Origin: an uncultured Alphaproteobacteria bacterium
Lineage (GTDB): Bacteria; Pseudomonadota; Alphaproteobacteria; RF32; CAG-239
Direction of reading: 5' to 3'
Assembly: GCA_944391315.1 (NCBI GenBank)
Contig: CALXTD010000002.1
Span: forward strand, 24,573-88,572
DNA: 64,000 nucleotides
A program made the translations under genes and the position numbers. A model generated the notes under the pieces. It saw only the letters and a program-made list of their open reading frames with translations, searched no databases and had not been told where the DNA came from. Shown here in pieces: positions 3,414 through 55,909 of the stretch (its first letter is position 1; each line of letters begins with the position of its first letter).

Positions 3414-4748
3414 ATGTTGAATTCGCGGGAATGTGCGGTTTTGACCGTAATGCTGTCGGCGGCAGGATTGTTGCCGATGAGCGCAATGGCAGATATTTCT
3501 TTTACCGAGGGTGGAGAACGACTTATCAACACACTTCACACACACCTCTATTCTCCGTCCTCGGGCTTGTCTTCTTCTGATGAGATTAAGCTTGCAGCGG
3601 TGTGTTTTATTAATGATACTTCGGCTTGTAGTGGTGAGACGTTTGGCAATACCGAAAACAGTGGTGGAAACAGTGATTCTGGTGGAGCGCCTGATTATGA
3701 TTTGAATGATGCCGAACGTTGCCGCAAAGAAGGTTATACTTTGACTTCTTGTGCAGCCGGAGAAACACCGGAAGGCTTTTGTATTTATAACAGCAATTAC
3801 TTCGCTCGTTGCGTATGCCCATCGGGTTATAAAACTTGTGAACCGCCTTATTACGGTGTCGGACAAGCTTGCGGCAATAAATATGCATCTTGCGAAGAAG
3901 ATACCGAACGTGCTTGTAAAGAACTTGATTCCGAATTCACTGACACTTGTCAAACAGGCTGGAAAGTCGATCCGAATAATGCTTGCGAATACGACCCAAC
4001 TTATGGAAAATGCTGTAACCTTTGCGAAGGTTATGATTATACAACTATTCCGGAAGGGTATATTGCTGACGGTGCCGCTTGTGCGGATTGCAACGGGATA
4101 AGCAAATATAAAATCAAAATTAACCCTTGCGATGGATTCCAAGACTGCGGCGTTATGGGTGGCGATACCGGCGCTAAAACTTGCATGTCCGGTTCGCAAA
4201 TAAAATACGATAACTGCAAACCTTGCCCGAATTTGGGAACTCTAAGTTCTTGTCCGAGCCCTTTTAAATGTACTTATGAAGCATGCTCAAATCGTTACTA
4301 CAAGTCTGGATGTCAGTCCGGTTATACATGGAATGCTTCTAATAAAACCTGCACGCAACAATGCAGTAGTTCCTATAAGTATACTTGTACAGGAAGCTAT
4401 CAAACCGGCGGAAGCGGCACGGCTTGTGGTGGAAAATATACTGCTTGTAAATGTTCAAGTGGATATAGCTGGAATGGTTCTAGTTGTGAGAGAGCAAGTT
4501 ATACAGAAGGGCTGCAAGTTTATTGTACTGAAGCAACTTTAGAACCTTCATATTTGGGACAGCATTTTTATTGTGAAGGTACCAGTGTAGGGTGTTGTTA
4601 TTGTAACGGACGTTATCTCACGCAATACACTGGTTCATCACTTTTTTATTCTAGCGTGTACGTAAATAAAGATTTTGTTTTTGAGCCAGGGTGGTATAGT
4701 GCTAGTAATGGTTATACATGTATTTGTTATTATGACGAATGTTACTAA
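3414..4748 (+). CDS. secreted cysteine-rich modular protein, unknown function (paralogue of 41248..42057)
   Basis: 444 aa with an N-terminal signal-like segment (AVLTVMLSAAGLLPMSAMA). Cys is very abundant, with recurring C-G-x-K-Y-x-x-C and CxC..GY.W motifs. About 65% of positions look identical to the 269-aa protein at 41248..42057 over the shared modules (LHTHLY..DEI.LAAVCF, GYDYTTIP.GYI.DG.AC.DC, NPCDGFQDCG, KYDNCKPCPNLGT). Confidence 0.8.
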   Translation: MLNSRECAVLTVMLSAAGLLPMSAMADISFTEGGERLINTLHTHLYSPSSGLSSSDEIKLAAVCFINDTSACSGETFGNTENSGGNSDSGGAPDYDLNDAERCRKEGYTLTSCAAGETPEGFCIYNSNYFARCVCPSGYKTCEPPYYGVGQACGNKYASCEEDTERACKELDSEFTDTCQTGWKVDPNNACEYDPTYGKCCNLCEGYDYTTIPEGYIADGAACADCNGISKYKIKINPCDGFQDCGVMGGDTGAKTCMSGSQIKYDNCKPCPNLGTLSSCPSPFKCTYEACSNRYYKSGCQSGYTWNASNKTCTQQCSSSYKYTCTGSYQTGGSGTACGGKYTACKCSSGYSWNGSSCERASYTEGLQVYCTEATLEPSYLGQHFYCEGTSVGCCYCNGRYLTQYTGSSLFYSSVYVNKDFVFEPGWYSASNGYTCICYYDECY

Positions 4749-4785
4749 TAAACATTTTTTATAAATTGTAATTTTTTCTATAAGT

Positions 4786-4820
4786 AAAACAACGGTATTG
4801 ATAATCAATGCCGTTGTTTT
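4786..4820. terminator. bidirectional terminator hairpin between convergent genes
   Basis: A 16-bp stem AAAACAACGGTATTGA/TCAATGCCGTTGTTTT (one G-U pair) with a 3-nt loop, flanked by A/T runs. Confidence 0.65.
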
Positions 4821-4840
4821 AGTGGTCTTATTTAAATATT

Positions 4841-5395
4841 TTATAATTCCCAGCTGCGGGAGAATTCTTCGTTCTTGAACAAGGCGGCTAAGCCGGTGAT
4901 TTGTTTTAAACGCAAAATTTCATCTGCGGACATGCCGATATTGCGGGCAATCCAAGCGTCGCTCTTTTCAAGTTCAAGCAGCTCCTTAACAATGTTGCTC
5001 ATCAAGTCAACATTGTGGCTACCGCGGGCGCGGTTGTGACGAATCGTTGAGGCAATTCTTTCGCCTAAGTCTTTATCTATCACAACAACTGGAATTTTGC
5101 CGTTCTCTCTGGCTCTGATGCGGTCCGATATCATCATGGTTGTATAGCGGTGGAATCCGTCAACGATAATGTATTCGTCTTTTTCTTTGTCATGATAGCA
5201 GACAATCGGCTGGGTAAAGCCATCTTCCCAGATGGATGTTTCAAGCAATTTCATCTCAGGTGGGGCTACTCTGTTCGGGTTGTAGTCATTGGCTTTTATT
5301 TTTTCAAGCGGGATGGCCTGAACATTATAAACCGGACTGATAAACTTTTTGCCGTTGTTTGATGCTTCGGCGGTGGTTGATTTTTTTTCTGTCAT
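4841..5395 (-). CDS. ParB/sulfiredoxin-like nuclease-domain protein (IbrB/DndB-like)
   Basis: Motifs IPLEKIKANDYNPNRV, IIVDGFHRY and RHNRARG are typical of ParB N-terminal-like domains. The start is set at ATG 5395, 10 nt after the stop of the upstream gene. The track ORF extends to 5497 but overlaps that gene. Confidence 0.8.
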   Translation of the reverse strand: MTEKKSTTAEASNNGKKFISPVYNVQAIPLEKIKANDYNPNRVAPPEMKLLETSIWEDGFTQPIVCYHDKEKDEYIIVDGFHRYTTMMISDRIRARENGKIPVVVIDKDLGERIASTIRHNRARGSHNVDLMSNIVKELLELEKSDAWIARNIGMSADEILRLKQITGLAALFKNEEFSRSWEL

Positions 5396-5405
5396 CTTGT
5401 TTGCC

Positions 5406-6707
5406 CTATAAGTTACGATATTTGTTGAGTAATTCTTTTTCTCTTTCAGACTGTTTTTTGGTCTGAGCAAAGCCCATGTGTTTGCACAAGTGGTCATTTT
5501 TCAGAATGCAGACTGCCATGCGTTTCCATGACGGAATGTCAATGGTCGACTTGATGTCGTCGGTGCTGTCCGGTGTGCCTAAAAAGCGAACTTGTTCTTT
5601 GACGCTGTGATAAGGGCTTGGGCCGTTGCGGCGAATGTTATAGTTGCAGGCTTCGAGCTCCTGAATCGCTTTTTCATCGACAACGCCGCCTTTGCGCCAC
5701 CAGAATTTGATTGAGGTTTTGAATTTCTCAATATAATTTTTTCTCATCTCATCCGGCAGGGTGGCCAGCAAAAATTTGACGTAAGACCGCCATGTGTGCC
5801 CTTTAGGCAAAGTGATGCGGCGGCTGCCGAGTAATTTTGTGTTGCCATACATGGCGCCGAAGTTTGCACCTTGTACACGGCCGACAACTCTGACCCAAGT
5901 GTCAGGTTCTAATACGCGGTATAGGTTTAAGCCTTCTTTGGCTGCCTCATGAAATGGGCTGGCAACGCGCATTTGGTGAATCGATAATCCTGCTTTATAG
6001 AACAAATCATAAATCTTGTTATAATCGAATCCGTATTTGCCGTTTGCAATCCAGACATCTTTGGTGGTCCAGTCATAAAGCGGGTAGGCGTTATACCAGT
6101 TTTTGCCCATCTTAGTGGTCCACTGCTTATTATCAATTAAGTCTTTGCGCGCATTGGCATAAGCACGGAATCGGTTGAGCGACTCGTCGGCTCTTATGCC
6201 CAGCAGGCAGATTGATTTGCCTTTATGTTGGCGAGAAAACCAGTCTGCAAAATCAGCATAAAGATCCTCTTGAACCATTTTGTATTTGTAAAAATCAAAC
6301 GGGTTGTTATTGAGGTTTATAATATAAGGCATGCTGGGCATTTCTCTGACCCATTTGTCTTTTTCATCCGGATCCCAAGTGTACCAATACATTTGATAGT
6401 TACTGACAGCACAACGTGAGCCCATCGGCAGACATACCCAGTAAGGATCTATACCTTCCAGATTGTTTTCAAACATGCGGGTGACAAACTCGGTGGTTTG
6501 TTTGTATTGTGCTTCAAAATCCTGATGAAAAACGCCTATCTTTCTTTTGATATTATTGCGGCGCTTATAGTCTAATACCAGATTTAGCAACAACCCGCTG
6601 TCTTTACCACCGGAAAAAGAAACATATATATTGTCGAAATTATCGAATATATATTTTATTCTTTCATTTGTTGCTTCATATACACTCTTATCGAGGTATT
6701 TTTTCAT
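5406..6707 (-). CDS. PP-loop ATP pyrophosphatase, PAPS-reductase-like (IbrA/DndC-like)
   Basis: PP-loop motif VSFSGGKDSG lies near the N-terminus, and the 433-aa length includes a long C-terminal extension as in IbrA-type proteins. Start ATG 6707 overlaps the upstream stop as ATGA. Confidence 0.85.
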   Translation of the reverse strand: MKKYLDKSVYEATNERIKYIFDNFDNIYVSFSGGKDSGLLLNLVLDYKRRNNIKRKIGVFHQDFEAQYKQTTEFVTRMFENNLEGIDPYWVCLPMGSRCAVSNYQMYWYTWDPDEKDKWVREMPSMPYIINLNNNPFDFYKYKMVQEDLYADFADWFSRQHKGKSICLLGIRADESLNRFRAYANARKDLIDNKQWTTKMGKNWYNAYPLYDWTTKDVWIANGKYGFDYNKIYDLFYKAGLSIHQMRVASPFHEAAKEGLNLYRVLEPDTWVRVVGRVQGANFGAMYGNTKLLGSRRITLPKGHTWRSYVKFLLATLPDEMRKNYIEKFKTSIKFWWRKGGVVDEKAIQELEACNYNIRRNGPSPYHSVKEQVRFLGTPDSTDDIKSTIDIPSWKRMAVCILKNDHLCKHMGFAQTKKQSEREKELLNKYRNL

Positions 6708-7951
6708 AATCTTAGTGCCTCCTCTTTGGAAATCATGCTGCAAAGGTTACTGACGACGTTTTCTTTCATCAAAAGACTTTGCCTCATCATTTCATCCAGT
6801 CCTGTTTTTACCCACAGATTATATATTTTTATCTCATGCTGCCGGTCATGCTGCGGAAGATTTTTCAAGGCTTGATGCTTGAACTTATAATCAAAGGTTT
6901 GGGAAAAGAATATCACATTATTACAATTCTGCATATTTAACCCTGAATTATCCACACCATATGTGCTAAATAATATATTAGTTTTTTTTTCGAACTCTTT
7001 CAAGGCGCGATTTTTATTTATTTTTCCGGCTAAAACTGAATATTCTCCCGGTTTGAACCAGCCACATTCTTCAAAAAAGTTTATTTCGTCTCTGAATTTT
7101 ACATAAATAACGACTTTTTCTTTTTTTAATTTAATGTCACTCACGAGCTCAAAAAGTTTTTCGACTTTGTTTTGGCAGATGGTGTACATATGTTGGAATC
7201 GGTGGATGATTTCAATAAACGGAGCCTTTGAACGGCGCTCAAGATATAAATTTTTTTCTTCTTGATAGCAGTGTTCTTCTTTTGGTGTGAGATCGCAGTA
7301 AATGTCATAATTTTTGAAATATTCGTGATATTCGGTTTCGTTTTCAAAAATGTAGGGTCTGATTTTTTCTATCAGAGAGACTTCTTGTTCGGGGTATGAC
7401 CATCTTTTGGCTTGCTGAAAAGCGCTTTTTAGCTTTTTTAGGTAGGCGTGATTAAACTGGATTTTGGTCATGTTTAAAATTTGGGGATTGATAAACTGTA
7501 GTTGGGCGTAAAAATCGACCAAACCGCCGGAAACCGGAAGTTCGGTTAAAATCAGTCGATATTTGAACAAAGGGCCGAGTTTTATTAGCTCTTTGGTTCT
7601 TTTGGATTTTGAATTTTTTATAATCAAGCAGTTGTCAACAACGCAGAAGGCTCTTTTATTGGCGACTAAGTCATGAATTTGCAAAAGTGTTAGCGTTGAA
7701 AAAGATGCGCATTCTATCGGAAAGACAAACAGTTTGCTGCGGAAGCCTTCGGAGTATTTGTCTAAGTATTCTTTATAGGTTTTTGAGTGAATAATATGTT
7801 CGCGGCTTATCCAGATGATGCAATCAATTTCTTCCAGTTTTGAATAGATTAAATCAAAGGCAAGTTGGATTCTGTCTTCTTGATTTTTACGATAAATGAT
7901 GCCGGATTTTAGTTTGTCAAGTCGCTCGTAAATAGACATTGGTATTTCCAT
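6704..7951 (-). CDS. SNF2-family-derived protein with degenerate ATPase motifs
   Basis: FCVVDNCLIIKNSKSKRTKELIKL..KYRLILTELPVSGGLVDFYAQLQFINPQIL parallels SNF2 motifs II/III (DEAH.IKN..S....L..L....RL.LTGTP..N...DL......F..P). The C-terminal half (KVVIYVKF..ILFSTYGVDNSGLNMQNCNNVIFF..HQALKNL) parallels Helicase_C. No GxGKT Walker A was found. An AAGGAG RBS precedes ATG 7951. Confidence 0.7.
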   Translation of the reverse strand: MEIPMSIYERLDKLKSGIIYRKNQEDRIQLAFDLIYSKLEEIDCIIWISREHIIHSKTYKEYLDKYSEGFRSKLFVFPIECASFSTLTLLQIHDLVANKRAFCVVDNCLIIKNSKSKRTKELIKLGPLFKYRLILTELPVSGGLVDFYAQLQFINPQILNMTKIQFNHAYLKKLKSAFQQAKRWSYPEQEVSLIEKIRPYIFENETEYHEYFKNYDIYCDLTPKEEHCYQEEKNLYLERRSKAPFIEIIHRFQHMYTICQNKVEKLFELVSDIKLKKEKVVIYVKFRDEINFFEECGWFKPGEYSVLAGKINKNRALKEFEKKTNILFSTYGVDNSGLNMQNCNNVIFFSQTFDYKFKHQALKNLPQHDRQHEIKIYNLWVKTGLDEMMRQSLLMKENVVSNLCSMISKEEALRL

Positions 7952-8116
7952 TTTTTTGCTCCTTTGCTGCGTTTAGCTTTATGTAATCTTTTATATTAGC
8001 AGTTCAAGAGATTAGCATTGTCTAAATTTTGATTTCTTTTTGGATGGCAAAACTTGTTTTTGCGTTGGAGAGAATTATATCTTGTTTGGTATTAATTTAA
8101 TTGATGGAGATGCCTT

Positions 8117-9970: not shown

Positions 9971-11293
9971 GTGAAACAGGTTGAAGTTCAAATTCCTAAA
10001 ATTTTTGCGCCGCTTTTGACATCTGATTATCGTAACAAATTTTTTTATGGCGGGCGTGCCGGCGGAAAGTCTTATGCCTTTGCCGATAGTCTTCTTCTTT
10101 TGGGGCGGCAAAAAAGGCTGTTTATTGCTTGTCTGCGTGAGATTCAAAACAGCATGAAAGATTCGGTCTATAAGCTTTTATGTGACCGAATCTCTTTTTA
10201 TGGGCTTGATGATTATGAGATTTTGGATTCTAAAATCGAAAACAAAATAACCGGTTCGCGCTTTGTTTTTAAAGGTTTGCGGAATCAGGACAGTCAAAAA
10301 ATAAAATCACTTGAAGGCGTTGATATCGCTTGGATTGAAGAGGCTCAGGCCATTACCCGCAAAAGCTGGGAAATCTTGGAGCCGACTATTCGTAAAGATG
10401 GGTCGCAAATTTGGATTTCCATGAACAGAGAAGAGGAAAACGACCCTTTGTGGGTTTTGGTGGCGGCGAATCCTGATGCACGCACTTTGGTGGTGAAGGT
10501 TAATTATTACGATAATCCGTTTTGTCCTGAAGAAATAAGGCTGCAAGCCGAAAAATGCAAACAGTCTTCTCCCGAAGATTATGAGCATATTTGGCTCGGT
10601 GAGCCAAGGCGGCAGGGAAATACCAAGCTGATTTCGGCCACAGATGTGTGTCACGCTTTTCAACAACAGCTGCCGATGCCGTCTTCGCCTTTGATTATCG
10701 GGGTTGATGTAGCGCGCTTTGGTGATGACAAAACCGTGTTTTGTTTTCGGCGGGGGCGAAGTTGTTTTCGAATAGAAAGTTTTTCGGGGCTTGATGTGGT
10801 GGAAGTGGCTAATCAGGCCACTTTTTTTATCAGAGAAAATCAGCCCAAGCGGATGTTTGTGGATATTGGCGGCGTGGGAGCCGGTGTTTATGACATTCTT
10901 AAAGACAGAGGCTTAGGCGAGGTGGTGAAAGCCGTTAATTTTGGCGAACGCGCCTTGCTTTCCGAGCGTTATGCCAACCGGCGTGCCGAGATGTGGGACA
11001 ATCTGCATGATTGGCTTATCTCCGAGCCGCAGGTGGCTTTGTTTTATGATGAGGATTTGCTGACCGATCTTTGTTGCGTCAACAAAAAATATGACCGCCG
11101 CGGGCGCTTGCTGCTTGAAGAAAAAGATGAAATCAAAAAGAGGCTCGGGCGTTCGCCGGACAAGGCTGATGCGCTTGCTTTGACTTTTGCCGAGCGGTTT
11201 TTTGATAATCTGGCGCCGCAAATGTATCGCCCCAAGCAGCTCTTATGGGAAGATGTGTTTAACTCGTATAATCAAGGAGATGACAAATGGTAG
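9971..11293 (+). CDS. terminase large subunit (PBSX/Terminase_3-like)
   Basis: Walker A in FYGGRAGGKSYAFAD, 440 aa, GTG start. The position is canonical. Confidence 0.88.
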   Translation: MKQVEVQIPKIFAPLLTSDYRNKFFYGGRAGGKSYAFADSLLLLGRQKRLFIACLREIQNSMKDSVYKLLCDRISFYGLDDYEILDSKIENKITGSRFVFKGLRNQDSQKIKSLEGVDIAWIEEAQAITRKSWEILEPTIRKDGSQIWISMNREEENDPLWVLVAANPDARTLVVKVNYYDNPFCPEEIRLQAEKCKQSSPEDYEHIWLGEPRRQGNTKLISATDVCHAFQQQLPMPSSPLIIGVDVARFGDDKTVFCFRRGRSCFRIESFSGLDVVEVANQATFFIRENQPKRMFVDIGGVGAGVYDILKDRGLGEVVKAVNFGERALLSERYANRRAEMWDNLHDWLISEPQVALFYDEDLLTDLCCVNKKYDRRGRLLLEEKDEIKKRLGRSPDKADALALTFAERFFDNLAPQMYRPKQLLWEDVFNSYNQGDDKW

Positions 11294-11556
11294 AAGCTTG
11301 TCCGAACTTTGTGCCGGTGACCGATCGTTTGGTCTTAAAACTTGAACCAAAAAATTCGGAAACCGCCGGCGGACTTATCCTTGCCGATGATACTTATGCC
11401 GTGCGCAATGTGGCAACGGTTTTGGCAATCGGTCCCGAGGTTAAAGCCGATGTGGCCGTTGGGGACAGAGTGATGTTTCACTGTTTTGACGAGCTGCCGG
11501 TTTGGGACGGCGATATTGTTGTGATACGTGATAAAAGCTTGTTGTTTAAATTTTAG
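11287..11556 (+). CDS. GroES/Cpn10-like co-chaperonin encoded in the head module
   Basis: 89 aa. V.DR.VLKLEPKNSETAGGLILADD....R.ATVLAIGP..K....VGDRVMF matches the GroES pattern (mobile loop ..T.GG(I/L).(L/I)...). It overlaps the terL stop. Confidence 0.7.
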   Translation: MVEACPNFVPVTDRLVLKLEPKNSETAGGLILADDTYAVRNVATVLAIGPEVKADVAVGDRVMFHCFDELPVWDGDIVVIRDKSLLFKF

Positions 11557-24250: not shown

Positions 24251-24324
24251 GGCCGGTTGGCAGAATGGTTATGCAGAGGACTGCAAATCCTTTGATATCG
24301 GTTCAATTCCGGTACCGGCCTCCA
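24251..24324 (+). tRNA. tRNA-Cys (GCA)
   Basis: Folded by hand. Acceptor GGCCGGT/ACCGGCC; anticodon stem GAGGA/TCCTT with loop CTGCAAA; T arm ATCGG-TTCAATT-CCGGT; discriminator U and an encoded CCA. Confidence 0.9.
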
Positions 24325-24332
24325 GTTATTAT

Positions 24333-24407
24333 TCCGACTTAGCTCAGCGGTAGAGCAATCGGCTGTTAACCGATTGGTCGTTGGTTCGATCCCAACAGTC
24401 GGAGCCA
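24333..24407 (+). tRNA. tRNA-Asn (GTT)
   Basis: Acceptor TCCGACT/AGTCGGA; D arm GCTC-AGCGGTA-GAGC; anticodon arm ATCGG-CTGTTAA-CCGAT; T arm GTTGG-TTCGATC-CCAAC; encoded CCA. Confidence 0.92.
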
Positions 24408-26820: not shown

Positions 26821-27702
26821 ATGAGGATTGGGGATAAGCTTATTTTAATAAGACGGATTTTTTGCTTTTTGGAAACGGCGAAAGAAGGGGCCGTTTCAAA
26901 GGCTGCGCTTAAAAACGGTCTTAAACAATCTAATATGTCGGCGGCAATTCGCGAATTGGAAGAAAAAACGCAATGCCGTTTGTTAACTCGTACCTCTCGC
27001 GGAATGGTGATGACTGATGCCGGTAAAAAGGTTTATGAAATTGCTTGCAATATTGATAAAGCCGTTGCCGATGTCGATGAGTTTTCTTTAGCTAAAGCAA
27101 CGCTTTCAGGTTCAATTCGGTTGTGGACGAGCGATGCTTTAGCGGCGGCTTATCTTTCTTATTGTTTGCCGGGGTTTTATGATCTTTATCCCGATGTGCA
27201 TATTGATATTGTGACCTCTATTGAGGCGCCGAAAGTTTTGTATGAGGTAGATTTAGCCCTCGTGTTTGAAGAGCCGAGGCAGTCTTCGGCGGTTGTGTTA
27301 ATGAAGCATAATCTGAAATTTGGGTTATTTGCCTCGATGGATTATCTTTCGCGAAACGGTTATCCTAAAGACCTTAAAGATTTGCAAGAAAATCATAAGC
27401 TTTGTGTGCGAGATAATTTTTCTTCCGTTTGGGAAAAGTGGAAAAATCTGCAAGATGGCAGCAAGCATATCGTGGCTTCAACAAACTCTTCTTCCATGCT
27501 GATGCATTTGACGCGTGATGGTATTGGAATTGCGCTTCATCCGATGAGTATCGGGTTAAAAGAGCAAAACTTGGTGCATTTGGACAAGCTTAAATTTTCT
27601 CTTTCTCATCCGTTTTGGATTATTTCTCACGTTGATGCAAAAGATCAGCCAAAAATTAGAGCGCTGATTAATTATATTAAGGAAGCAACCGCGCAATTAT
27701 AA
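26821..27702 (+). CDS. LysR-family transcriptional regulator
   Basis: An N-terminal wHTH (FLETAKEGAVSKAALKNGLKQSNMSAAIRELEEKTQCRLLTRTSRGMVMTDAGK) plus a substrate-binding-sized C-terminal part. Confidence 0.8.
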   Translation: MRIGDKLILIRRIFCFLETAKEGAVSKAALKNGLKQSNMSAAIRELEEKTQCRLLTRTSRGMVMTDAGKKVYEIACNIDKAVADVDEFSLAKATLSGSIRLWTSDALAAAYLSYCLPGFYDLYPDVHIDIVTSIEAPKVLYEVDLALVFEEPRQSSAVVLMKHNLKFGLFASMDYLSRNGYPKDLKDLQENHKLCVRDNFSSVWEKWKNLQDGSKHIVASTNSSSMLMHLTRDGIGIALHPMSIGLKEQNLVHLDKLKFSLSHPFWIISHVDAKDQPKIRALINYIKEATAQL

Positions 27703-28225
27703 AATCAATGACTTTTAACGGCAGTTCTTCTTCGGTTTTGCTTAATAACCAGATTTTGCGCTTTAGTTCTCCCGAAAGTTCAATCTCAATAAAATTTGTT
27801 TCTCCGTGCGGGGCTTGACCGCTGATGATAATATCTGCTTGATTGCGGCGGGGAGACAAAATGATTTCGGCCTCATTAAACGCGGCAAAAAATTTTTCAA
27901 AGTCAGAAAATTCCAGCTCCGGCGCTAGGAAAATTTTTATTTGTTTGTGAGGTGTTTTTTCGGCTGTTTCTGCTTTTTCCAGTTCTTGTTCTATTTGTTC
28001 GGCCAGAGCGCAGACTTTGCTTCCTAAGGCGGTTGGGGTGACGCCTTTGGTGGTGCGGTTGAGCAATTTTCCTCCGATAATTTCTTCAAAGTCGGAAATC
28101 AGGCGGCTCAAGTTTGATGGCTTGATGCCGTTTTTTTCGGCAGCAGTATTAATGCTTCCGTGTTTAACCGTGCTGTTTAGTGCCAGCAGATATTTTATTA
28201 TGGCCAGTTGTTTTTTTAATGACAT
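27677..28225 (-). CDS. short LysR-type HTH protein (effector domain truncated or atypical)
   Basis: LysR-like HTH (VKHGSINTAAEKNGIKPSNLSRLISDFEEIIGGKLLNRTTKGVTPTALG) in a protein of only 182 aa. The 3' end overlaps the convergent LysR gene by 26 nt. Confidence 0.6.
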   Translation of the reverse strand: MSLKKQLAIIKYLLALNSTVKHGSINTAAEKNGIKPSNLSRLISDFEEIIGGKLLNRTTKGVTPTALGSKVCALAEQIEQELEKAETAEKTPHKQIKIFLAPELEFSDFEKFFAAFNEAEIILSPRRNQADIIISGQAPHGETNFIEIELSGELKRKIWLLSKTEEELPLKVIDFIIARLLP

Positions 28226-55483: not shown

Positions 55484-55793
55484 AAAAAAGCGGGCCTTCT
55501 GTTGCTAGGCGGCCCAAGCCCCACTTTCAACTAACCAAAGTTAAAAGAATTTTGAATTCGTTGCTGTCGCTTAAATTAAGCAGCTACGGCAACAGGTGCT
55601 ACGTTATTATCGTTAGCATTCATTTTAATTTGAACCGATAACGGTGGTATCTCACCGAGCACAGCTTGTATCTTTACTGTATCTTGTCAAACCTAACTCA
55701 CCCCCGCAGAAATGGTGGAGGTGCCGGGTTCTGCCCCCGGGTCCAATATACCTATTCTATACCGCCTCTGGTGCTACAGTCGGTTGCCCGACA
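55484..55793 (-). ncRNA. ssrA: two-piece (circularly permuted) tmRNA
   Basis: The minus strand reads GGAC-CCGGG-GGCAGAA-CCCGG-CACCTCC-ACCA (acceptor piece 3' end, 55712-55743), then a 7-nt linker, then GGGGGTG.. (coding piece 5' end). These give a 7-bp acceptor stem with a G3:U70 pair. The tag ORF GCT AAC GAT AAT AAC GTA GCA CCT GTT GCC GTA GCT GCT TAA encodes ANDNNVAPVAVAA* (55617-55576). A terminal hairpin and U-run lie at 55484-55520. The outer ends are approximate. Confidence 0.85.
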
Positions 55794-55799
55794 TTTTTC

Positions 55800-55827
55800 A
55801 ATATACATGATTTTATCTTTTTTTCAA
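55800..55827 (-). promoter_or_regulatory. ssrA promoter
   Basis: The minus strand reads TTGAAA (55827-55822), a 16-nt spacer, then TATATT (55805-55800). Confidence 0.5.
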
Positions 55828-55909
55828 GATATAAATTTGTTTGTAACTTGCGGCTTGGCGTTGTGAATTTTTGGGGTTGTGCTATTGTGCCAATATAAGG
55901 AGAAGTTTT

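Follow-up and report, generated by a model that had tools for sequence, protein, structure and literature searches.

A stretch of 64,000 nucleotides (nt) from an uncultured gut-type member of the Alphaproteobacteria (GenBank assembly GCA_944391315.1, contig CALXTD010000002.1, positions 24,573 to 88,572 of the forward strand; hereafter the window, with coordinates counted from its first letter) carries three tightly packed genes whose products resemble, in the order of transcription, an SNF2-family protein, the PP-loop protein IbrA and the ParB-like protein IbrB (Table 1). An earlier note on this DNA had described them as a translationally coupled minus-strand operon and proposed an undescribed module for DNA modification, defence or prophage control. 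The coupling is borne out in the sequence: the ATG of gene 2 (6707) overlaps the TGA of gene 1 as ATGA (6707-6704), the ATG of gene 3 (5395) lies 10 nt past the TAG of gene 2 (5408-5406), and the AAGGAG Shine-Dalgarno element is present in front of gene 1, with AAAGG invariant and AAAGGA kept in four of five related species aligned. A mechanical list of open reading frames (ORFs) gives longer alternative starts (445 and 218 amino acids, aa), and the shorter starts are favoured because homologues are 433 aa and 168-185 aa long and IbrA invariably begins with M1-K2. Promoter-like matches inside the operon stay at chance level (14 observed versus 9.7 +/- 3.2 expected), in agreement with the claimed lack of internal promoters. 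Upstream of gene 1, a promoter-like block is the sole well-conserved stretch of the 165-bp intergenic region in the five-species alignment, although it is no strong match to the sigma-70 consensus. The hairpin said to close the unit is indeed a strong predicted fold (-17.9 kcal/mol, z = -6.7; none of 200 shuffled sequences folded as well), although a canonical U-tract was not found at it and a simple terminator scan made no call there. An Rfam scan returned no RNA family inside or beside the operon. The flanking genes encode a BOF protein of the oligonucleotide/oligosaccharide-binding (OB) fold, two nitroreductases and a cysteine-rich secreted protein, and no gene for a desulfurase, DndD/E, a methyltransferase or a nuclease was found near the operon, just as had been claimed.

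Table 1. Genes and putative signals of the three-gene operon (window coordinates)
Feature	Position	Strand	Evidence
Gene 1, minimal SNF2-family two-lobe core, predicted ATPase-dead, 415 aa	6704..7951	-	Pfam, phrog_62, AlphaFold2/Foldseek, motif states, dN/dS
Gene 2, IbrA/YbdN-type PP-loop ATP pyrophosphatase (PAPS_reduct + DUF3440), 433 aa	5406..6707	-	Pfam, phrog_2302, invariant motifs
Gene 3, IbrB/YbdM-type ParB-N (ParB/Srx) protein with C-terminal helix-turn-helix-like region, 184 aa	4841..5395	-	Pfam, phrog_2159, YbdM similarity
Shine-Dalgarno AAGGAG, 7 nt upstream of ATG 7951	7961..7966	-	Sequence; five-species alignment
Promoter-like block upstream of gene 1 (TTGAAC at 8007-8002 + ~25 nt)	7980..8010	-	Conservation; promoter function putative
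Terminator-like hairpin after gene 3	~4785..4821	-	RNA fold

The product of gene 1 passes the Pfam gathering thresholds for SNF2-rel_dom (31.9 bits) and Helicase_C (27.9 bits), belongs to the DNA helicase family phrog_62 of PHROGs (5e-35), and is modelled by AlphaFold2 as a complete two-lobe SNF2 core (predicted local distance difference test, pLDDT, 80.6), whose best Foldseek matches were ISW1, SsoRad54, INO80 and Rad26/CSB (E ~1e-17). Fold and domains thus bear out the SNF2 derivation proposed earlier, but the catalytic motifs have been lost: motif I reads NQEDR where phage homologues have GTGKT, motif II is DNC instead of DES, motif III is TELP instead of NGTP, and motif VI is QALKNLPQHDR instead of QAxxRIxRxGQ. 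Judged by these motifs, the protein has an SNF2 fold and is not to be called an active helicase or translocase; since it is predicted to be ATPase-dead, models that need a translocase are inapplicable to the trio of the window.

In the product of gene 2, a PAPS_reduct domain (PF01507, 42.3 bits; cut-off 22.5) is followed by DUF3440 (PF11922, 259.2 bits; cut-off 25; profile positions 1-181 of 182), and the protein belongs to phrog_2302 (PAPS reductase, 2.6e-115). It is 33% identical to Escherichia coli YbdN over 424 aligned positions (E = 5e-75) and 45-47% identical to phage proteins annotated IbrA; this significant similarity, the domain order and an intact SGGxDS signature place it in the IbrA/YbdN family. 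The PP-loop SFSGGKDS is invariant among 87 IbrA sequences and is present in the window protein as SFSGGKDSG. Other conserved positions comprise D63/E65 and G170-x-R-xx-E-S-xx-R179, which are invariant, and the near-invariant Cys92. A DndC-like iron-sulfur cluster was considered and rejected, as there is no invariant multi-cysteine motif and Cys92 alone is near-invariant. The N-terminal half of the AlphaFold2 model resembles APS/PAPS reductase, CysD, FAD synthetase and LarE, and a sequence search of the PDB with IbrA returned nothing significant. As a side observation, two IbrA clusters that are 79% identical to gene 2 (P0114 and P0109) consist of single exact sequences found on at least 1000 and on 673 contigs, respectively, including ones of about 2 Mb, which makes the IbrA family extremely common in the gut communities that have been sequenced.

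Gene 3 encodes a protein with a ParB_N domain (PF02195, 29.8 bits; cut-off 26.3) that belongs to phrog_2159 (ParB-like, 3.3e-78) and is 49% identical to E. coli YbdM (E = 2e-53) and about 60% identical to phage proteins annotated IbrB. With its ParB-N domain, its position next to IbrA and its similarity to YbdM, it shows the features of the IbrB/YbdM family. Its alignment to residues 25-165 of Noc (7ol9) and Spo0J (1vz0) covers their CTP-binding N-domain and helix-turn-helix (HTH) region, and the motifs NDYNPN, DGFHR and RHNRARG, nearly invariant in the IbrB family, occur here as DYNPNRV, VDGFHRY and RHNRARG. A ParB of the ParABS type was rejected: the match to TIGR00180 (parB_part) reaches 27.9 bits against a cut-off of 58.45, and no ParA is encoded next to it. 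Weak matches to SerK and SbnI, which are small-molecule kinases of the ParB/Srx fold, were also obtained. The profile searches and alignments as a whole sustain what had been read from the letters of genes 2 and 3, since all domain calls of the operon lie above the Pfam gathering thresholds, the motifs quoted in the earlier note rank with the best-conserved positions in each family, and the proposed kinship with IbrA and IbrB agrees with the identities given above.

A relative was detected in 199 species-representative genomes. The best 80 of these, to which the following linkage counts and identities refer, are almost all metagenome-assembled genomes (MAGs) of uncultured gut Alphaproteobacteria, together with some Opitutales, and CALXTE010000002 matches the window with 98% protein identity for gene 1. 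The synteny suggested by the three-gene layout holds across them: IbrA follows the SNF2 gene in 80 of 80 loci and IbrB lies next to IbrA in 78 of 80, the two exceptions being cut by contig ends. Across these genomes, gene 2 remains 73-99% and gene 3 74-95% identical, whereas the identity of gene 1 goes down to 33-53%. The chromosomal neighbours are housekeeping genes (flagellar genes, CTP synthase, triosephosphate isomerase, polysaccharide genes), and clustering by flanking genes gave synteny groups of 19, 19, 13, 11, 5 and 3 loci plus singletons. Such neighbours and so few synteny groups fit a long and mostly vertical residence rather than a mobile defence island.

The loss of the catalytic motifs is conserved. 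Among 75 gene-1-related protein clusters, Walker A and motif VI are missing in every one of P0001-P0063, which are 33-100% identical to the window protein (P0001 being its own cluster), whereas P0064-P0071 are intact. Counted by copies in genome and phage loci, 79 of 93 are dead by the same two motifs and all of these belong to gut Alphaproteobacteria; the 14 live copies come from GenBank phages, Opitutales, an Arcobacteraceae MAG, a Holosporaceae MAG and the loci L010/L011, and every one of them carries GxGK[ST], DES, NG[TQ]P and R..R.GQ. The gut alphaproteobacterial lineage appears to have lost Walker A, motif III and motif VI long ago. The dead gene is nevertheless under purifying selection: the ratio of nonsynonymous to synonymous substitution rates (dN/dS) is 0.03-0.04 at a dS of about 0.2-0.35 against relatives with 98% identical proteins, and 0.09 against more distant relatives. 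Its divergence relative to gene 2 is larger in the dead clade (ratio 2.34) than in the live clade (1.11), and pairs with 70-80% identity in gene 2 have 46% identity in gene 1 if dead and 67% if live. Constraint on the dead gene 1 is therefore relaxed, though selection persists. Decay into a pseudogene was rejected on the basis of the low dN/dS, the conserved length and the unbroken linkage to IbrA.

The closest named relatives of the pair formed by genes 2 and 3 are E. coli IbrAB and YbdNM. In E. coli, IbrA/IbrB and their paralogues YbdN/YbdM are likewise encoded by an operon in which a PP-loop protein with PAPS_reduct and DUF3440 precedes a ParB-N/HTH protein. Unlike the trio, ybdNM has no SNF2 gene and is located after the LysR-type gene citR, which encodes its repressor; in a citR mutant, ybdNM has been described to be derepressed along with cys-regulon genes. 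This locus is core in E. coli (5421 of 5426 genomes), and pairs of the IbrAB/YbdNM type form thousands of protein clusters and are frequent in phages. Two candidate matches were discarded in this comparison: a divergent E. coli ibrAB match turned out to be a plasmid pseudogene fragment and not the ECOR-9/O157 island, and a fragment labelled as a Salmonella phage is the ybdNM locus of Salmonella. What is new in the window and its relatives is the strict linkage of the pair to a minimal SNF2 protein, the broad phage distribution, and the conserved pseudo-ATPase form in gut Alphaproteobacteria.

As an alternative with no link to DNA, IbrA and IbrB could be a metabolic or RNA-modifying pair, acting in sulfur or nucleotide metabolism or in tRNA thiolation or amination, with the SNF2 protein as a decaying passenger. 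The nearest folds of IbrA listed above, the small-molecule kinases of the ParB/Srx fold, and a core ybdNM pair that does without SNF2 and is derepressed together with cys-regulon genes would all suit such a role. However, gene 1 shows no sign of decay by any of the three measures that speak against a pseudogene, SNF2 proteins track double-stranded DNA, IbrB keeps the HTH region of the ParB type, and in phages a live SNF2 protein is strictly linked to IbrAB, which together make a purely metabolic or RNA-directed pair hard to credit.

Several named systems combine similar parts. DndB/DndC, SspD and BrxP resemble the trio in that a PP-loop enzyme of the PAPS-reductase fold is paired with a ParB-superfamily protein bearing a motif of the DGQHR/DGFHR type, and in that these systems and the trio alike are predicted to act on DNA. 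However, the IbrA of the window differs from the Dnd enzyme by having DUF3440 instead and by lacking an invariant multi-cysteine cluster, and membership in Dnd was rejected because the DndC equivalog model TIGR03183 gives 21.9 bits against a cut-off of 290.4 and no DndA, DndD, DndE or restriction module is encoded nearby. BREX type 4/Ssp was rejected as well, BrxP matching with 20.6 bits over residues 15-44 only and PglZ, BrxC and SspABC partners being absent from the flanks in the window. In the Dpd system, composed of the tRNA-guanine transglycosylase (TGT) DpdA, the ParB-like ATPase DpdB and the SNF2 helicase DpdE among others, a ParB-like NTPase aiding a DNA modifier is likewise combined with an SNF2-family helicase; the window differs in having neither DpdA, DpdC nor other Dpd genes, in having a PP-loop enzyme as the putative writer, and in that its SNF2 protein is a dead minimal core. 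The match to DpdE is a partial one in the SNF2 core (20.5 bits, 2.4e-5), and with no DpdA nearby Dpd was rejected. The same applies to Zorya, for which ZorD gives a partial SNF2-core match (43.9 bits, 2e-12) with no ZorA/B nearby, and to DISARM, for which DrmD reaches 15.1 bits against a cut-off of 610 with no DrmA/B/C nearby. On the whole, PADLOC and NCBIfam returned only these weak partial matches (DndC, BrxP, ZorD, DpdE and DrmD), no PADLOC match for gene 3 and no system-level match, which agrees with the view of the earlier note that the composition could not be assigned to any named system.

These likenesses are what would recommend a role in anti-phage defence. On the model of Dnd, Ssp, BREX type 4, Dpd or DISARM, IbrA and IbrB would write a mark by which self DNA is told from foreign DNA, and the SNF2 protein would be the sensor or the effector. 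In Dnd, Ssp and BrxP systems, writing is done by a PP-loop enzyme together with DNA-targeting partners; DISARM, Zorya and Dpd each include an SNF2 helicase; and weak partial matches were obtained to ZorD, DpdE, DrmD, DndC and BrxP. However, no nuclease or other effector is encoded in or beside the operon, no PADLOC system is matched, and the DndC score is far below its cut-off. The housekeeping neighbours and stable synteny also fit poorly with defence; IbrA is 73-99% identical across the lineage, unlike fast-turnover defence genes; virulent phages carry the module themselves; and the SNF2 motor is dead in the window. A defence system of this kind is therefore considered very improbable.

The trio is by no means confined to chromosomes. 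With gene 2 as the query, tblastn matched 223 phage records, of which 118 were covered over nearly the full length. The Streptococcus and Lactobacillus phages that were inspected have an SNF2-like gene (~390-410 aa), IbrA and IbrB in the gene order of the window and with overlapping ends, between the lysis genes and cro-like early genes; examples of carriers are Streptococcus phages D4276, CHPC877 and Pika, Lactobacillus phage CR28 and the FCL-2/V183 group of Flavobacterium phages. Among Flavobacterium phages, 90 records match both the gene-1 and the gene-2 queries, and in Flavobacterium columnare phage V183 (L092, 3243-6107) the trio lies between terminase and portal in the order SNF2-IbrB-IbrA, which also occurs in some other phage loci, with a shorter IbrA (377 aa) that lacks the C-terminal part of DUF3440. 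Mycobacterium phage Gaia has IbrA and, as a separate product, a ParB fusion protein in its DNA-metabolism region; the protein that precedes IbrA there (gp102, 298 aa) was examined as a gene 1 relative and rejected, with no detectable relation (BLASTP 1e-8). In IMG/VR, 149 contigs encode a relative of gene 1, and among the best 80 of them all three genes are present in 72; Walker A is found in 79 of these 80 gene 1 loci, which were counted separately from the 93 genome and phage copies above, and the sole exception is cut by a contig end. This unnamed phage trio (phrog_62, phrog_2302 and phrog_2159) thus has the three families, the order and the mostly overlapping genes in common with the window, but differs in keeping an intact SNF2 ATPase, whereas Walker A, motif III and motif VI are gone from the window copy, and the window protein is only 25-28% identical to the phage SNF2 proteins. 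Among the papers that could be searched, none describes an SNF2-IbrA-IbrB trio or its mechanism, in line with the earlier supposition that the composition is undescribed; it is not rare, however, but a widespread phage module that is present and unnamed in annotated phage genomes.

The location of the phage copies brings up a counter-defence function, in which the module would modify or remodel phage DNA against restriction or CRISPR and the copy in chromosomes would be a domesticated leftover that now serves the host. In virulent S. thermophilus phages the trio occupies the lysogeny-replacement region, and in phage D4276 (L177, 2484-6265) an annotated AcrIIA5 (D4276_028) is encoded two genes upstream of the trio (D4276_030 to 032). 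AcrIIA5 and the live trio form one gene string on a common strand there, which puts the phage form of the module in an anti-defence neighbourhood; moreover, phage copies all keep a live motor. On the other side, this is evidence of association only, the placement varies (next to terminase in Flavobacterium phages, in the DNA-metabolism region in Gaia), the AcrIIA6 paper is silent on the trio genes, and the dead-motor chromosomal form is little explained. A role in counter-defence is therefore a candidate to be kept in mind, though an unlikely one.

With moderate confidence, we favour a different explanation of the locus, namely that this self-contained operon descends from a module common in tailed phages and encodes a domesticated IbrAB complex that is directed at DNA and includes SNF2 as a non-motor subunit. 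The formation of a complex, DNA as its substrate, its chemistry and its biological output are what we infer in this proposal, and a DNA-directed complex is favoured because the motif and fold features of IbrA and IbrB occur together with an SNF2 core. Moreover, in a large subset of IbrAB pairs a minimal SNF2 gene is strictly linked as the third member of the unit, which suggests that they act on duplex DNA. In this scheme, IbrB, with its ParB/Srx N-domain and HTH region, would bind or clamp DNA, possibly in an NTP-dependent manner like ParB, Noc and DpdB, and would position IbrA. IbrA would use ATP to adenylate a target group, and the adenylate would then be displaced by a sulfur or nitrogen nucleophile, which is the generic chemistry of the fold as in DndC, SspD, TilS and LarE. 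The SNF2 subunit would engage duplex DNA. Phages and a few bacteria have what may be a live translocase that gives processive access to DNA, and in the lineage of the window the motorless protein may have been retained as a scaffold or DNA-binding part. The output would be a mark on DNA or an altered accessibility or expression of DNA, as is hinted by the phenotype of IbrAB in E. coli.

Several points weigh against such a DNA-directed complex. Sandt et al. reportedly found in 2002 that E. coli IbrAB activates prophage eib genes (in strain ECOR-9), and to our knowledge this eib-activation phenotype alone makes up the biochemical and genetic record of the family. Instead of DNA, the target could be RNA, a protein or a small molecule; tRNA and metabolites are what most PP-loop enzymes modify, and the ParB/Srx fold includes small-molecule kinases. 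The E. coli ybdNM pair is core and works without SNF2, so that the SNF2 subunit must be dispensable for basic IbrAB activity. In addition, the DUF3440 half of the IbrA model had no structural match in the PDB, and the model itself is only moderately confident (pLDDT 73.8), because the homologue alignment (best 120 matches) was dominated by relatives at 73-89% identity.

A bolder version of the favoured reading may be offered tentatively, although we think it unlikely to hold as a whole. The trio might be an undescribed system, widespread in phages, for writing a new DNA modification or otherwise neutralising host immunity, in which a ParB-like loader and an SNF2 motor carry the PP-loop enzyme along the genome, and which was captured long ago by gut Alphaproteobacteria as a motor-less, site-bound regulator of an epigenetic or chromatin-like kind. 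If this were true, the trio would be the first domesticated phage DNA-modification machine with a pseudo-ATPase subunit. More than 20 years after the discovery of IbrAB/YbdNM pairs we know of no biochemistry for them, and the phages of S. thermophilus, Lactobacillus and Flavobacterium should be tractable models for finding their function. The alphaproteobacterial lineage is a natural experiment in which a motor that is long dead but still selected separates ATP-driven translocation from the core function, as well as a clean example of a conserved bacterial SNF2 pseudo-enzyme. Should the module write a DNA modification or, in phages, counter defence, it would represent a new enzyme class; otherwise, it would be a well-delimited gene family.

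A cluster of phage-derived genes begins 1.6 kb from the trio with terS (start 9563) and extends to about 23632 (~14 kb), ending at tRNA-Cys and tRNA-Asn genes (24251-24407). It comprises terS, terL, a GroES-like protein, portal, major head protein, tail proteins, an amidase, an acetyltransferase, tail fibres and a transglycosylase, whereas integrase, repressor and replication genes were not found in it, in line with the earlier remark that it lacks regulators of its own. Four other species-level MAGs have the cluster in synteny at a common site, and dN/dS values of 0.02-0.11 for terS, terL and portal indicate purifying selection on its genes. Because of this synteny and selection, it may be a retained or domesticated element, or one resembling a gene transfer agent (GTA), and not a decaying prophage.

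Given the eib phenotype, it could be supposed by analogy that the trio is a regulator which switches on this cluster (9.5-23.6 kb). The cluster is close to the trio, divergent from it and free of a repressor, integrase or replication genes of its own; the two are found side by side in five species-level genomes in which the cluster is selectively maintained; and the trio of the Flavobacterium phages lies between terminase and portal. However, adjacency is seen in only 5 of 81 loci, all of them close relatives from the synteny group of the window, and in the other 76 no homologues of the phage packaging genes lie within 6 kb, the remaining synteny groups having housekeeping neighbours. Two host genes (BOF and nitroreductase) intervene between trio and cluster, the trio predates the adjacency and has a far wider distribution, and a PP-loop enzyme is no obvious transcription factor. 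The control of phage-derived genes that had been suggested earlier is not supported by these counts as a general function of the trio and would be a most doubtful explanation of the family, whereas a lineage-specific role of the trio toward this cluster is conceivable.

Some other features of the window may be mentioned. Within the phage cluster, a gene for a GroES-like co-chaperonin (phrog_3188, 8.8e-14; 11287-11556, plus strand) is located between terL and portal. The cysteine-rich protein on the other side of the trio (444 aa; 3414-4748, plus strand) has an N-terminus resembling a signal peptide and no Pfam match, and fast-diverging copies of it (28-49% identity) are found near the trio in several related MAGs. 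Downstream of glyA, a full LysR-type regulator (26821-27702, plus strand) is overlapped by a convergent ORF (27677-28225, minus strand) with the LysR HTH only, which may be a truncated LysR paralogue or a spurious call. Finally, a two-piece, permuted transfer-messenger RNA (tmRNA) of the alphaproteobacterial type is encoded at 55487-55831 on the minus strand (Rfam RF01849, 201 bits; tag peptide ANDNNVAPVAVAA), which is consistent with the alphaproteobacterial origin of the window.

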